Below, in pieces: positions 12,001-17,524 of a DNA stretch of 17,524 nucleotides. Made by a program: the position numbers. Source of the DNA: Desulfobacterales bacterium (GTDB taxonomy: Bacteria > Desulfobacterota > Desulfobacteria > Desulfobacterales > UBA5616); contig JAWODC010000047.1 in assembly GCA_046483495.1 (NCBI GenBank), positions 1-17,524 of the forward strand. The letters run 5' to 3'. Every line of letters starts with the position of its first letter. Within the stretch, counting starts at the first letter, position 1.

Positions 12001-15000
12001 GGATCACAAACGATGACCTTCATTTTTAACCCGCGAGCCCGATTGGCAACGATGGATCCTATTTTTCCGAATCCGATGACCCCCAGTATTTTGTTGTAAA
12101 CTTCTCTTCCCTGCAGTTTTTTCTTCTCCCAACGGCCATCCATCAGCGTCGATGTTCCACTTGGAATATTGCGCGTCAAGGACAGCATCATGGCAATAGT
12201 ATGTTCGGCCGTTGAAATGACATTCCCCCCGGGAGTATTCATGACGACAATCCCGCGTTTCGTGGCTGCGGGAATATCGACGTTGTCGAGGCCGATTCCC
12301 GCTCTGCCAACCGCCTTCAGATTGGCGGCGGCATCTAAGAGATCCGCAGTGACTTTTGTTGCGCTTCGAATCACAAGGGCATGGTAATCGCCGATGATTT
12401 CTTTTAATTCTTCGGGGGAAAGCCCGGTTTTAACATCCACCTCGATGCCGTCTTCTTTGCGTAGCATATCGATTCCGATTTCACCCAGATTGTCACTGAT
12501 CAGAACTTTCATTTGGCGCCTCCTTTACATCCCGCGCATAAGATTATGTTAAAAAAACTAAAAAATATAAATCAAACTTTTATGCACAATGTCAAACAAA
12601 TCTTCAAAAGAAAGGTGTGGGACGGGCGCTTTCGTTTCATGAAAACCGAATTTGGAGCGTATATGATGCGGTGTAGGGCAAAGATGTGTTCGGCCCGTTT
12701 CAGGATGGACATCGACAGCAAAAACTATTCTTGGACCCGGCTTTTACGATATTGAATATAGGCGTTTTTGAACGCTTGGTACGGTTGAAGAGAGGCTTCC
12801 TTTAGGGATTCATAATCACCGATACGCAAGGAGGTGGCGTTTATCGCATTTTCGGCGGTCAGCCCGATGCGGATCGGGGTCGATTCGATATAGCCGATGG
12901 GGTTTAAAAACATTCTGTCTGCCGCAAATCCGAAGGAATCCCTTAAGGTCGAAGGACCGATCAGGGGCCATACGAGATAAATCCCGTTGCCGATGCCGTA
13001 AGTGCCAAGGGTCTGTCCCATGTCCTCTTCCGGGGGGTCGAGACCGGGGTATTTTTGCGCCGGATCCATGAATCCCAGTACCCCTATCGTACTGTTGATG
13101 AAAAAGGCGAAAAACTCTCCCATTGCCGGGCGCGCCTTCCCCTGGAGCACACAATTGACCAAACGAATCGGCGCCTTGATATTGTGAAAAAAATTGTCGA
13201 TTCCCCGCCTGGCCGGCAGCGGCACCACCCGGCCGTAAAATTGTGCTGTTGGTTTCAAGATCCGGAAATACAAACGATCATTCACCTGGAACATAAACCT
13301 GTTCCAGGGTTCCAACGGGTCGAAAACGGTGATTTCCTCTGATGGATATGCTTCCTCGAGAAACTCGAAGTCCTCATCCACTTCGGACTCTGAGGCCGTT
13401 TCTGCGTACTGGTAAGCCGTTTCAGGATTATCTTCATAATCGGCGGTCGAGCGCCGGTCTTCAGCAAAAACCGGTGACGGCGCTCCCCCGGCAAAAAGCA
13501 GCAACATCGCGATCAGAACAGGAAACATAGAAGGGTGACGGCGTATTGCCGGGGAATCGTTCATTGGTCGTTCTCGGATTCGTTTAGCTTGGATTGCAAT
13601 TGGTCGATCAATTCATCGGCCGATTTATTGATAAGGATCGAACGAATCTGGCTGCGGTAATTTTCAATCAGGCTGACATTTTCGACAAGCACATCATAGA
13701 TCTTCCATTTGCCGGCGATTCGCCGCATGCGATAGTCTATGGGTATCGATGTATTTTCTTGGGGTATTTCGGTTTTGACGATCGCCCTGCCTGGACTGAG
13801 TATCTCCCCGCTCACGAACACGACATTTTGGCCCTCATAGCCTTCTTGGATTTTATCCAGGTACTTATTGCCCAAAAAGCGTGAAAAAACATCGATAAAT
13901 TTTTCCTGTTGTGCCGGGGAGAAGGTGTTATTCCAATGAAAGCGGCCCAGCACACTCTTGGATATAAATGTAAAATCAAAAACCGGGTATATGACATTCC
14001 ATAGTTTTTCGCGTTGAATATCTTCCTGTTCTGCGCCCTGGTATCGGGGGTCTTCCAGAATTTCAATGGTTTTCTCTATGGGAGCCTTTAAGGCTTCCAT
14101 GGGTTCGGTCCCCGAAGCGGCGACCGGAATCAGCACTGCCAGTAGTATTACCGTGTAAAATATGCCGGTTTTCACGTCTCTCTCCTTCGATGCCGGTGAC
14201 ATTTTCAAACATCTCCAAACATGTATCTGCTGACCAATTCCTCAAGGTCAAGGGCGGGCTTCGTATTGGTAATGATATCTCCATCCTGAAGATACATATC
14301 GGATCCGCCCGGGGACAATTGGATGTATTTGTCGCCGATCAGGCCGGATGTTTTGACGGATGCGCTGACGTCTTCCGAAAGCTCGATGCCCTGGTCGATT
14401 TTCATTTCCACAACGGCGACCTGGCGTTCCTGATCCAATCGTATATTGCTGACGGTTCCGATTGGGATGCCGGCCATTTCAACCCCGGCGCCTTCTTTTA
14501 ATCCGGCCACAGACTGAAAACGACCGTAAACCTGGTATCTTTCCTCCCCGAACAGCTCTAATTTACCCAGCCTTACAGTCAAGTATCCCACGCACAAAAT
14601 ACCGATCAGCACAAAGATGCCGACCGATGTTTCAATGGACGCCTTTTTCATAAAACCTCCAAAAAATTAACAGACATTGAACCGGTAAACAACACTTTTC
14701 GAGGACTCTGCTTCGCCGATCACCTCTTCGAGACTGTTTCCCTTCTTGAATTCGGAAATGCCTGCGACAATGCTATAGCAAAAATCAGCATACGGTTTTA
14801 TGTCCACACGCACGTTTACTTCGAATTCTTCGATCACCTTCGAACAGACTTTTTCCGCCTGTTCGCGATTCGTATCGGAAAGAATCACCAGGATGTGATC
14901 CATCTTATAGCGGGAGCAGGTATCCGTGACGCGAATCGTTGCCTGGATTCGATCGGCCAGGTCTTTTAATGCGTTATGGGTCGCCCGATGGCCCAGATGA

Positions 15001-17524
15001 GTGTTCACTTCACTGATGTTTTCGATTTTAAACAGAATAACCGAGAACGGTATTTCATATCGGTTGAAACGCGCGATGGCTTCTTTGAAGCGGTTTTCAG
15101 CATGCGAATAGTGTGCCGTGCCGGTCAGGTCGTCCTGCCCCGACTCGAGTCCGCGGACAAATTTCCGGATTACCGGATTGTCCGATCGCTGGAATGCTTC
15201 AGGGTCCCCCTCGAAAAGGATTTTTCCTTCTTCCAGCATGGCGATTCGATGGCTGATGTAAAAGATGTCGGGAATTTCATGGCTTACCATAACCGCCGTA
15301 AATCCGAGGCGCTTCTGATACTCTGTGATCAGGGTGTGAACGGCGCTTTTGCGTATGGGATCCAGTCCGGTCGTCGGTTCATCGAAAAGAACGATTTTCG
15401 GATCGGTAATCAGCGCGCGTGCAAGGGCCACCCGCTTCATCATTCCACCGGAAATCTGGGAGGGATATTTGTCCTCGATGCCCGAGATATCCAACTGGTC
15501 CATTCTTTCCTTTACTTTTCGTTCGATTTCTTTTTGAGAAAGGCGGGCATTTTCACGCAACGGCAAGGCGATGTTCTTGAACACCGTCATGGAATCGAAA
15601 AGGGCGTTTCCCTGGAACATGTAGCTGAATGTTTTCTTGAACTGTATTTTATCTTTTTTTTTCAGTTTGTTAATGGGGACACCCTCATACAGGATTTCAC
15701 CGGAATCCTGTTCCAAAAGCCCTACGATATGCTTTAACAGGACACTCTTTCCGCCGCCGCTTTTTCCCACAATAGTGGTCGTTTTGTCTCGGTATATGGA
15801 GAGGTCGACGCCGTTCAAGACCGGGGTTCCACCGAAGCGCTTCACGACATTTACCAGTTTTATCAACGGCTGTTCCATTAGGTTGCAACTACATCAGAAA
15901 AGAGGTTAACACGTAATCCGCTGCAAGAATCAATACACAGGATTGGACGACGGCATTTGTCGTGGACGTGCTGACGCCTTTTGCACCGAACCCATTCGCT
16001 TTAAGATGGGTATAGTATCCCTGATAGCAGCAAACCGTAACAACGATGACGGCAAAGAAAATCGACTTGATAAATCCTCCGGTAATATCATTCATCAACA
16101 CGCTGGACTGGGCGCGGGAAAAATAGATTTCCTGGTTGATGCCCAGCAGCACCGATCCGGTCAGATAGCCGCCGTATATGCCGATAACATCGAAAATCGC
16201 CGTCAGCAGGGGGAAACAGATGAGTGCCGCAGCGATTTTGGGGCTGATCAAAAATTGGATCGGGTTGATGTTCATGGTCTTCAAGGCATCGATTTGTTCG
16301 GATATCCTCATGATCCCGATTTCGGAGGACATGGCCGACCCCGCCCGCGCCGTGACCATAATAGCGGCCAGAACAGGACCGAGCTCCCGGACAAGTGAAA
16401 GGGAAACCGCGGAACCGAGAAATCCTTCGGAACCGAACATCACCAGGCTGTAATAGCCCTGAAATCCGAGGACCATTCCGGTAAATGCCCCTGTCAGGCA
16501 GATAACGAAAACGGACTTGCTTCCGATAAACTGAATTTGCTGGACGATTCGATATGTACGAAATGGATATTTGAAAATCAGGAAGAAGCCTTTAATGAAA
16601 AATATGGCGCCTTTTCCCATATCCCTCAGAATACGAAGCGTCATGTTGCCGATCGCGGCGATTGGATTTTTTCTTCCTCTTTCCAACGTATTGCCCTTCT
16701 CCCAAAAGATTGGCGCCATGTGTGAATCGGTGTCGGTTGTGTCCCGACCGGGGATGCCTATGGACACAAGCATATCGAAACTCAAGGAAAAAAATAATCC
16801 TCTGTATAACCAAACCCGCAAAACGTGTCAAGAATGAAAAGGTGCGATGCCGCGGGCTTTAATGAACGGCGAAAGTGCCGCCGCGCGTGGTGATCCAACA
16901 GTTCTCGAACGGTCAGGCGCATCATGTCAGGGCTCCGGCGATTGACTTTGGCTGAAGGATATACTAAAAGTTTTAAAAAAAATTAGCAACTTGCCGTAAA
17001 CATCGGCCGTACGGGAAAGGAAATTGCGGTGCTTGAGCGAATCATTTCCAACAGAAGAAACCTGGAGCATATTCTCGATAATCTCAAAGAAGGCATTATT
17101 GCCCATGATCTGAACCGCATGATTTTCTTTTTCAACCGGGAGGCTGAAAAGATCACCGGCTTCACGCGCGAAGAAGTGCTGGGCAGGGATTGTCATGAGG
17201 TTTTTGGCTGCCCGCTTTGCGGAGAGCGCTGCTCGTTTTGCGGTGACAAGCCCATGCCCGAACAGCGGCAGGAGTATGCCGTCAGCATTTGCACGAAAAC
17301 CGGAGAGCCCCGGCGAATCGATATGACCGTATCGCTGATGCGGGATTCGGGAGACAGCGTCATCGGCGTTTTGGCATCGTTCAACGATGTGTCCGATATT
17401 TTGGAGCTTCAAATCCGGGCGGGAAAGTTGGAGCGTTTCTCCGGCATTATCGGCCGGGATGCGAACATGCAGAGAATTTTCAAACAAATCAGAGACTTGT
17501 CTGGATATAACTACCCGATCCATA

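Follow-up and report, generated by a model that had tools for sequence, protein, structure and literature searches.

The mla operon in a 17,524-nucleotide stretch of a Desulfobacterales genome (contig JAWODC010000047.1, referred to here as the window) encodes a lipid-transport ATPase of the MlaF type that carries, directly after the ATPase, a degenerate domain of the GGDEF family. Comparison with relatives suggests that this domain is a structural tail held in fixed register with the ATPase and that its main job is independent of any ligand, a reading to which we assign a probability of roughly 45%. Such a role appears somewhat more likely than a cyclic di-GMP (c-di-GMP) brake on lipid transport; judged by its residues, the tail keeps most of a candidate c-di-GMP docking site.

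The fusion gene, its operon and its distribution

The genome-wide survey's note had described a 403-residue protein encoded within the mla operon, consisting of a normal MlaF over residues 1–245 and a C-terminal GGDEF-family domain, and this description is borne out. The gene is one open frame, Pfam identifies its neighbours as MlaE, MlaD, MlaC and MlaA, and the order is mlaE-F-D-C-A, with gaps of 10 and 15 bp flanking the fusion gene (Table 1). A frameshift or assembly artefact is ruled out by the occurrence of homologues as single open frames in many genomes. Within the protein, Pfam places ABC_tran at residues 21–170 (E 1.8e-33) and GGDEF at residues 248–392 (E 3.4e-18; score 66.3 bits, cut-off 23.8). 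The best NCBIfam family for the fusion is MlaF (E 4.9e-55), at 186.7 bits and thus below the equivalog cut-off of 441.

Every expected motif of the ATPase is intact (GKSGGGKS, Q89, SGGMM, FDEP and H200), and the top Foldseek match of this domain is E. coli MlaFB (6XGY; E 3.7e-28, 36% identity). In clade A, the group of 102 sequences that holds the window protein and has sister clades B (42 sequences) and C (7 sequences), Walker A and the H-loop histidine are present in all members and the methionine-containing signature SGGM in at least 101; according to passages of PMC7367683, a methionine in this motif is typical of Mla- and TGD-like systems. We infer from homology that the window's Mla system transports phospholipids between the membranes.

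Table 1. Features of the mla locus and of the fusion protein, in window coordinates.
Feature	Position	Strand	Basis or remarks
mlaE permease	15889..16821	(-)	Pfam MlaE E 6.8e-77; TIGR00056 over cut-off; ORF taken from first start codon, real start probably later
mlaF-GGDEF fusion gene, 403 aa	14667..15878	(-)	Single open frame
MlaF ABC ATPase domain, aa 1-245	15144..15878	(-)	Walker A GKSGGGKS, Q89, signature SGGM, Walker B/D-loop FDEP, H200
DxLT hinge DDLT, aa 249-252, joining last ATPase helix to GGDEF domain	15123..15134	(-)	Fixed spacing; low pLDDT at aa 246-251
Degenerate GGDEF domain, aa 248-403	14670..15137	(-)	Pfam, sequence alignment, AF2 model, structure comparison
R270, secondary I-site Arg position (PleD R313, helix alpha0)	15069..15071	(-)	Arg in 83/102 of clade A
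H301, guanine-binding Asp position (PleD D344)	14976..14978	(-)	Gln in most homologues
RVTD, putative primary I-site RxxD, aa 316-319	14922..14933	(-)	D 102/102, R 78/102 in clade A
KMDHI at GG(D/E)EF position, aa 325-329	14892..14906	(-)	Sequence and alignment
K347, third I-site Arg position (PleD R390)	14838..14840	(-)	K 61, R 25 of 102 in clade A
mlaD, short single-MCE type	14205..14651	(-)	Pfam MlaD; TIGR04430 over cut-off
mlaC	13561..14208	(-)	Pfam MlaC E 2.4e-44
mlaA	12725..13564	(-)	Pfam MlaA E 2.8e-65

The fused mlaF is encoded together with mlaE and mlaD in the window and at all 32 fused loci examined. No mlaB (STAS) gene was found among the ORFs and Pfam matches of the window, and none of the 32 fused operons has a same-strand ORF of at least 90 aa between its mla genes. 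Of the genome's two STAS_2 matches, both outside the window, the one on contig C70 is part of a fusion with a second MlaE and the one on contig C34 stands free, so an MlaB-like partner could act in trans. The idea that the tail replaces MlaB finds no support in synteny: the unfused operons L050, L067 and L069 of the same phylum equally lack an mlaB-sized gene, as judged by ORF size rather than by a STAS profile. On the tree, short MlaFs are placed among fused ones, which together with these unfused operons indicates that no tail is required in place of MlaB and that tails can disappear.

The prevalence given by the survey, about 11 of 201 Desulfobacterota genomes, was of the right order. The fusion occurs in at least 38 of 400 genomes of the phylum, in 16 families of that sample, and is much commoner in the window's order, with at least 120 of 250 genomes; two or more long matches are found in 18 of 120 order genomes, and in G147 both MlaF types lie in one cluster. 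A word-index homologue search with the domain alone returned only 3 proteins and is too insensitive for this family. A single clade for all GGDEF fusions is rejected (p-AU 0.011, for groups picked after the first tree had been seen), and such fusions may have arisen more than once. Other forms of the protein also occur. One, L027, is shortened and ends at the hinge; some long C-terminal MlaF tails no longer score as GGDEF; and nine MlaF-like matches are extended at the N-terminus (P0053, P0067, P0068, P0077, P0082, P0103, P0115, P0135 and P0136), with no second Pfam domain among the top families listed for them.

The fold, the dead active site and the I-site residues

The AF2 model of residues 232–403 (pLDDT 80) matches GGDEF structures (Foldseek E 3e-9) and aligns with GcbC and PleD at a VIA-align Z of 17.9. 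The survey's statement that the GG(D/E)EF motif is missing holds well beyond this protein: KMDHI stands at its position, and the motif is found in 0 of 172 homologue rows, from which we conclude that the domain, on its sequence, cannot be an active cyclase. K284 and H301 are the equivalents of PleD D327 (the metal aspartate) and D344 (the guanine aspartate), and at neither position does any of the 102 clade A members have Asp. The column of residue 301 is instead mostly Gln, in 88 of 102, 30 of 42 and 5 of 7 members of clades A, B and C, respectively. The whole family retains the DxLT hinge and a linker of constant length. The distance from the H-loop H200 to the DxLT threonine T252 is 53 residues in 149 of their 151 members, despite a within-clade mean identity of the domain of only 38–41%, and the columns common to all three include the hinge LTG, G296, Q301, R323, A341 and G373 and no I-site or catalytic residue.

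The motif RVTD, which the survey had placed at residue 316, indeed lies at the I-site position, five residues before KMDHI, the canonical spacing in an alignment to 3IGN. The correspondence of R270 to PleD R313 was mapped by spacing (PleD numbering from PMC7288161). In clade A, D319, R316 and R270 rank 1, 18 and 20 among 156 columns by rate and are three of the slowest four of 41 charged columns. Position 347 evolves at a median rate (rank 80 of 156), and in the DgcR structure the equivalent of this third primary-site Arg makes no contact with the ligand. All four residues, counting any basic residue at 347, occur together in 55 of the 102 members. In 24 members another residue, usually Tyr or Ser, stands in for R316, which takes about 10 changes on the clade A tree; of these 24, 19 keep R270 and 19 keep a basic 347. 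RxxD is gone from all 42 members of clade B and all 7 of clade C, although both clades keep the domain, and the aligned sequences thus mark the I-site as a clade-specific feature. In seven deeper-branching ABC-GGDEF proteins, R and D align at the I-site columns in every case (in P0073 an extra residue gives RxxxD), again without GG(D/E)EF. RxxD is also the default among ordinary GGDEF domains, being present in 31 of the 31 top-scoring controls, so its presence partly measures how little a domain has decayed; at the third-Arg position, read at fixed spacing, these controls have R in 12 and K in 5 cases.

Possible functions of the tail

In the explanation that we prefer, a working MlaF ATPase would have captured a diguanylate-cyclase domain and retained it at its C-terminus in a catalytically inactive state, with the last ATPase helix and the DxLT hinge as a connection of constant length. 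Since MlaF works as a dimer, two tails would sit together under the ATPase pair, probably at the place taken in E. coli MlaF by the handshake tail that stabilises the dimer, and in MetN and OpuA by regulatory domains. From there they could keep the ATPase dimer together or grip a partner protein and in this way control assembly and turnover of the transporter. The I-site of clade A would be inherited and may add modulation, but would not be required for keeping the module. A dimerisation module had been the survey's own alternative, and a role of that kind, in dimerisation or more broadly structural, accounts for the pattern across the family somewhat better than c-di-GMP sensing does. The near-invariant linker and hinge, kept over strongly diverged domains, point to such a role, as do the loss of R316 in sequences that mostly keep R270 and a basic 347, the retention of the domain without RxxD in clades B and C, and the lack of sizeable ORFs between the mla genes of fused operons. 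In E. coli, passages of Kolich et al. (PMC7367683) describe the MlaF tail as required for function and a GCN4 dimerisation domain as largely able to substitute for it. Against a structural tail stand the slow I-site columns of clade A, the retained I-site R and D of the deeper-branching proteins, the unfused operons and short MlaFs described above, and the existence of a separate PilZ-MlaF lineage. A dimer prediction for two copies of residues 232–403 with a 70-row alignment scored 0.01 against a mark of 0.42 and is evidence neither way.

The survey had proposed that the domain senses c-di-GMP. For clade A this is plausible, in view of the slowly evolving I-site residues; the replacements of R316, the absence of RxxD from the 49 sister-clade sequences and its default presence in the controls weigh against it. 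In its fullest form, which is possible but which we hold only tentatively, the dead tail of clade A would be an I-site receptor that brakes the ATPase. As in cyclases under product inhibition, dimeric c-di-GMP would connect R316, D319 and K347 in one tail with R270 in its partner. Tension from the cross-linked tails would reach the last ATPase helix by way of the hinge and fix the ATPase pair in a single state; the analogy is with c-di-AMP acting through the CBS domains of OpuA, and this control would have been lost in clades B and C. Precedents are SgmT and PopA (PMC3509222), the cross-linking of DgcR and PleD, and OpuA as presented in parts of PMC7673798. The canonical spacing of RxxD, its combination with R270 and a basic 347, the survival of the fold without these residues in clades B and C and the rejection of a single clade for the fusions all fit this proposal. 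It fits less well that the other site residues show no decay matching that of R316, that the third residue is Arg in only 25 clade A members and Lys in the window protein, and that the groups in the test of a single clade were chosen after the fact.

The genomic context can be read both ways. The window genome encodes a REC-GGEEF cyclase and a LapD-like protein and contains five PilZ matches, but only three GGDEF matches in all, the MlaF fusion included. Cyclase-like GGDEF matches are near-universal (all 38 genomes that have the fusion, and 37 of the 38 for which none is listed), and their co-occurrence is therefore uninformative. A separate lineage has a PilZ domain fused N-terminally to MlaF in an mlaE-F-D operon, with RxxxR and DxSxxG complete in 18 of 18 clusters; this favours a link to c-di-GMP, but the lineage is a tight group (73–100% identity) of uncultured organisms unrelated to the window's lineage, and it is rich in PilZ domains generally (7–13 matches per 1.1–2.0 Mb). 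The wider proposition, that c-di-GMP directly gates Mla/MCE transport and has been wired to it more than once, by a dead-GGDEF C-terminus in clade A and at least one other branch and by an N-terminal PilZ domain, we regard as rather unlikely.

It is improbable that the tail senses some other signal, whether a thiol, redox or metal cue at its conserved cysteines or a different nucleotide or metabolite, taken up in a guanine pocket that has been remodelled and is lined by the conserved Gln. Clade A has C321 in 96, C345 in 88, C367 in 83 and C403 in 67 of 102 members; C403 is also found in 36 of 42 clade B and 7 of 7 clade C members, and these two clades have a Cys close by, at column 365, in 26 of 42 and 7 of 7 members. 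The Gln position common to the three clades ranks 7 of 156 by rate, and a change at the equivalent of D344 is linked to altered base specificity in Hypr GGDEF enzymes (reviewed in PMC7288161). However, the cysteines may be mere buried core residues, His takes the place of Gln in the window protein, no more than 52 of 102 clade A members retain N292, and the metal aspartates are lost. We think it very unlikely that the tail is a near-neutral passenger of an old fusion, tolerated and not used. A roughly threefold higher median rate in the domain than in the ATPase (1.24 versus 0.43) and the shortened or no longer recognisable tails noted above would suit such a passenger, but the domain keeps a constant length in the order genomes that have it (at least 120 of 250) and in the 16 families, and several of its columns are near-invariant. 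Least probable of all is that the tail binds GTP, the other signal that the survey had named, as the degenerate GGDEF domain of Caulobacter CC3396 does, or that the ATPase cycle drives it as a cyclase of weak activity. The window protein does have N292 and, at the third motif position, an Asp, and the distant fusion P0020 has a near-canonical GGKEF. Against this, the GG(D/E)EF motif and the guanine and metal aspartates are lost, the Pfam match ends before the domain does, at profile position 149 of 161, and, whereas CC3396-type domains retain the guanine pocket beside a neighbouring EAL domain, the fusion protein has His (Gln in most relatives) at the D344 position and no Pfam match to EAL.

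Relation to known systems and significance

One of the closest characterized systems, E. coli MlaFEDB (PDB 6XGY; described in passages of PMC7367683 in which GGDEF does not occur), shares the ATPase fold, the signature methionine and the mlaE/D/C/A partners, but has a handshake tail of about 25 aa where the window protein has a folded domain of about 155 aa, and the window's operon has no mlaB. SgmT and PopA likewise join a dead A-site and an I-site RxxD to another signalling or enzyme domain; here the host is an ABC ATPase, the third Arg is Lys, c-di-GMP binding is only predicted, and the I-site is found in only part of the family, in contrast to its presence in all SgmT homologues (PMC3509222). 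OpuA, in the portion of PMC7673798 considered, is also an ABC ATPase with a C-terminal domain, and c-di-AMP lodged between two CBS domains locks its cycle, which served as our model for a c-di-GMP brake; the messenger, domain and transporter class all differ, OpuA being an osmolyte importer and not an MCE lipid transporter. The active cyclases PleD, DgcR and GcbC have the same fold, a DxLT hinge after a helix and the I-site geometry, together with the catalytic motif and the metal and guanine aspartates that are absent here. An ammonium transporter with a GGDEF-like domain, presumably an active sensor cyclase, is a channel-type sensor, as opposed to the ABC ATPase of the fusion. Its solved structures (PDB 8QJ3, 8QJ4 and 8QPF) match the fusion domain by sequence.

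No title or abstract opening on a GGDEF-MlaF or PilZ-MlaF fusion was found in the literature searched. New to this analysis are the PilZ-MlaF fusion and the possible repeated origin of the GGDEF fusions. In the part of PMC13524336 considered, c-di-GMP and the mla operon are linked only indirectly, through the UspG-RamR-RamA axis.

The fusion family allows a direct test of how Mla is controlled after translation, a matter on which passages of the MlaFB paper (PMC7367683) leave the trigger of MlaB open. It offers natural matched variants that differ in whether they have the I-site or the tail, and some genomes hold two of them. If c-di-GMP does not bind, the family would represent a widespread reuse of a signalling-enzyme fold as a structural tail on an ABC motor. 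If it does bind and gates the ATPase, this MCE lipid transporter would be, within the literature searched, the first to come under the direct control of a second messenger, and the lipid balance of the outer membrane would be a direct output of the messenger that governs the transition from motile to sessile life.

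A GGDEF-family tail on an Mla ATPase

The fusion gene is a single open frame of 403 aa in an operon with the order mlaE, fusion gene, mlaD, mlaC and mlaA, separated from its two flanking genes by 10 and 15 bp. Pfam assigns it both an ABC_tran and a GGDEF domain (table below), which bears out the genome-wide survey's note that a GGDEF-family domain extends MlaF at its C-terminus. Every motif of the ATPase part is intact, including the Met-containing signature that the available text of Kolich et al. (PMC7367683) gives as typical of Mla-like systems. The structure closest to the full-length model is that of E. 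coli MlaF, and structure comparison identifies the model of aa 232–403 as a GGDEF fold; because confidence drops at aa 246–251 and the pTM is 0.60, the model leaves the orientation of the two domains unfixed. Elsewhere in the window lie same-strand housekeeping genes, including those for a membrane pyrophosphatase, a Do-family protease and serA, and we saw no link between these neighbours and the fusion.

Residues were compared across 110 matches from the order search (30 loci plus further loci) and 70 rows of alignment A1; after removal of two duplicates, and of four loci and one protein without a recognisable anchoring motif, 172 rows remained. PleD numbering was taken from the available text of PMC7288161 and carried over by spacing and by alignment to 3IGN. 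The clades were read from a tree built with FastTree on the ATPase part, once that tree had been seen: clade A, to which the window's protein belongs (102 rows with 46 family codes; support only 74), clade B (42 rows, support 99) and clade C (7 rows), with 21 rows outside them. The catalytic GG[DE]EF motif, which the survey had reported missing, occurs in 0 of the 172 rows, and the window's protein carries KMDHI in its place. In clade A the metal-binding Asp is replaced by T or S in 81/102 rows and the guanine-contacting Asp by Q in 88 and by H in 10, with D in none at either position, while the guanine Asn is kept in 52/102; the window's protein has K284, H301 and N292. Judged by these residues it is not a cyclase, and the survey's alternative of GTP sensing is unlikely. 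P0020, a single-member cluster and possibly a recent fusion, joins an MlaF-like ATPase to a nearly canonical GGDEF domain (GGKEF, RxxD, Pfam E 6e-38).

Coordinates of the fusion gene, its domains and related loci
Feature	Position	Strand	Basis
MlaF-GGDEF fusion gene	window 14667-15878	-	
ABC_tran domain	aa 21-170 of 403-aa protein	-	Pfam
GGDEF domain	aa 248-392 of 403-aa protein	-	Pfam, E 3.4e-18
Conserved cysteines of the dead domain	window 14670-14918		
Housekeeping neighbours	window 3312-12512		
Second MCE cluster of the window's genome	L053 (G000:C70, about 13400-16900)		
Cluster with two MlaF-GGDEF genes	L036 (G147:C15:1-7000)		
Short MlaF	L027:1489-2238		
Gene after mlaA, clade B	L048:4308-5051 and 9 other loci		
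PilZ-MlaF fusion, PilZ N-terminal	L073:6001-7131; also L255-L260		

Distribution and operon context

The fusion is a widespread and real MlaF variant, apparently undescribed. Matches in a single open frame that extend beyond query residue 330 were found in at least 38 of 400 genomes of the phylum sample, from 16 families, and long matches in at least 120 of 250 genomes of the window's order, at least 18 of which had two or more; the nearest ESM Atlas clusters are mostly from Thermodesulfobacteriota. All 32 opened fused loci have the order mlaE-mlaF-mlaD-mlaC, most with mlaA, and no same-strand ORF of at least 90 aa lies between their mla genes, as is likewise the case in three unfused operons. 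STAS domains in the window's genome lie only outside the window's mla operon; its second MCE cluster comprises a STAS-MlaE fusion, a short ATPase, MlaD and an auxiliary lipoprotein.

Several loci vary this arrangement. One cluster (L036) contains two copies, that of clade B within mlaE-F-D-C-A and that of clade A immediately downstream of mlaA, and heterodimers of the two are possible. The short MlaF at L027 stops exactly where the DxLT hinge begins and looks like tail loss; the same genome carries a fused copy as well. Downstream of mlaA, clade B operons carry a conserved gene that encodes about 250 aa and has no Pfam or NCBIfam match; its Atlas neighbours suggest an outer-membrane beta-barrel, possibly a porin partner of MlaA.

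A second fusion, to PilZ

Among 61 of the best 150 representatives, scanned against Pfam, one (P0129) joins PilZ to an MlaF-like ATPase. Its family comprises 18 clusters (73–100% identity) from an uncultured lineage, all 18 with both c-di-GMP-binding motifs, RxxxR and DxSxxG. The gene lies between mlaE and a long mlaD (about 418 aa) in 6/6 genome loci and 4/5 metagenome loci, the fifth ending with its contig before mlaE; at L073, lptF/G and a GAF-GGDEF gene follow the mla genes. In five of these genomes GGDEF matches are strong and PilZ matches number 7–13 per genome; with PilZ this common, the fusion could be opportunistic.

On the tree, the ATPase of PilZ-MlaF and those of the GGDEF fusions lie on separate branches. 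On a reduced 51-row tree without the short rows nested among the fusions, the GGDEF fusions need three changes, and forcing them into one clade gives p-AU 0.011. The case for more than one origin is only suggestive, since its starred branches are compatible with a single origin and the groups were chosen after the first tree.

Among the openly accessible papers listed on MlaF, MceG, Mkl, Ttg2A or MCE with GGDEF, PilZ or c-di-GMP, on regulatory domains of MlaF, on degenerate GGDEF-ABC ATPases and on Desulfobacter domain architectures, none concerned either fusion; such proteins could appear in the table of Mla components in PMC10665443 or in large tables of domain architectures.

A possible structural tail or c-di-GMP brake

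We favour a mainly structural or partner-binding module (probability about 0.45), in which two GGDEF tails would sit together beneath the ATPase dimer. The spacing between the H-loop His and the DxLT Thr is 53 residues in 149/151 rows of clades A–C and in 16/21 rows outside them, and columns common to the three clades include LTG of the hinge, G296, Q301, R323, core Ala/Gly and the terminal Cys. In the available text of bioRxiv 2020.08.28.271692, the DxLT turn of cyclases follows the helix coupling the input domain to the GGDEF domain; in that of PMC7367683, the E. coli MlaF tail is essential and GCN4 can largely stand in for it. Within the dead domain, C321, C345, C367 and C403 are conserved in 67–96 of 102 clade A rows.

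A close if tentative rival is that an I-site cross-link between the tails would act as a brake on the transporter, on the pattern of OpuA (available text of PMC7673798). The window's protein has R316-x-x-D319 at canonical I-site spacing, with R270 in the secondary and K347 in the third position. Of the 102 clade A rows, all have D319, 78 have R316, 83 have R270 and 86 have a basic residue (K or R) at 347, and 55 combine the four; D319, R316 and R270 rank 1, 18 and 20 in site rate among 156 columns and, with R323, which every clade keeps, are the slowest four of 41 charged columns. Seven deeper-branching fusions also align R and D at the I-site columns, six of them as an ordinary RxxD and the seventh with one residue more. 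RxxD is found in 0 of 49 rows of clades B and C, all of which keep the domain; the fold thus does not need the motif, which favours a role for it in clade A, but the domain is also evidently retained without the site. However, RxxD occurs in 31/31 ordinary GGDEF controls (top-scoring, hence biased to consensus), so its presence here partly reflects mild decay. Of the clade A rows, 24/102 lack R316, which requires about 10 changes on the tree, and, as R270 and a basic residue at 347 are each kept in 19 of these 24, nothing points to joint decay. Only 25/102 rows have Arg at 347, a position that evolves at a median rate. Both synthesis and perception of c-di-GMP are probably within reach of the window's genome, which has one REC-GGEEF cyclase, a single LapD-like protein and five PilZ matches, yet genomes that carry the fusion are not told apart from those without it by their cyclase content. 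The survey's proposal of c-di-GMP sensing is plausible for clade A.

The structural and brake readings are not exclusive; c-di-GMP binding and regulation of the window's MlaF are putative, and c-di-GMP gating is less likely than not. Clade A, the window's copy included, is the clade with the best-preserved putative c-di-GMP site, which makes this copy a good test case.
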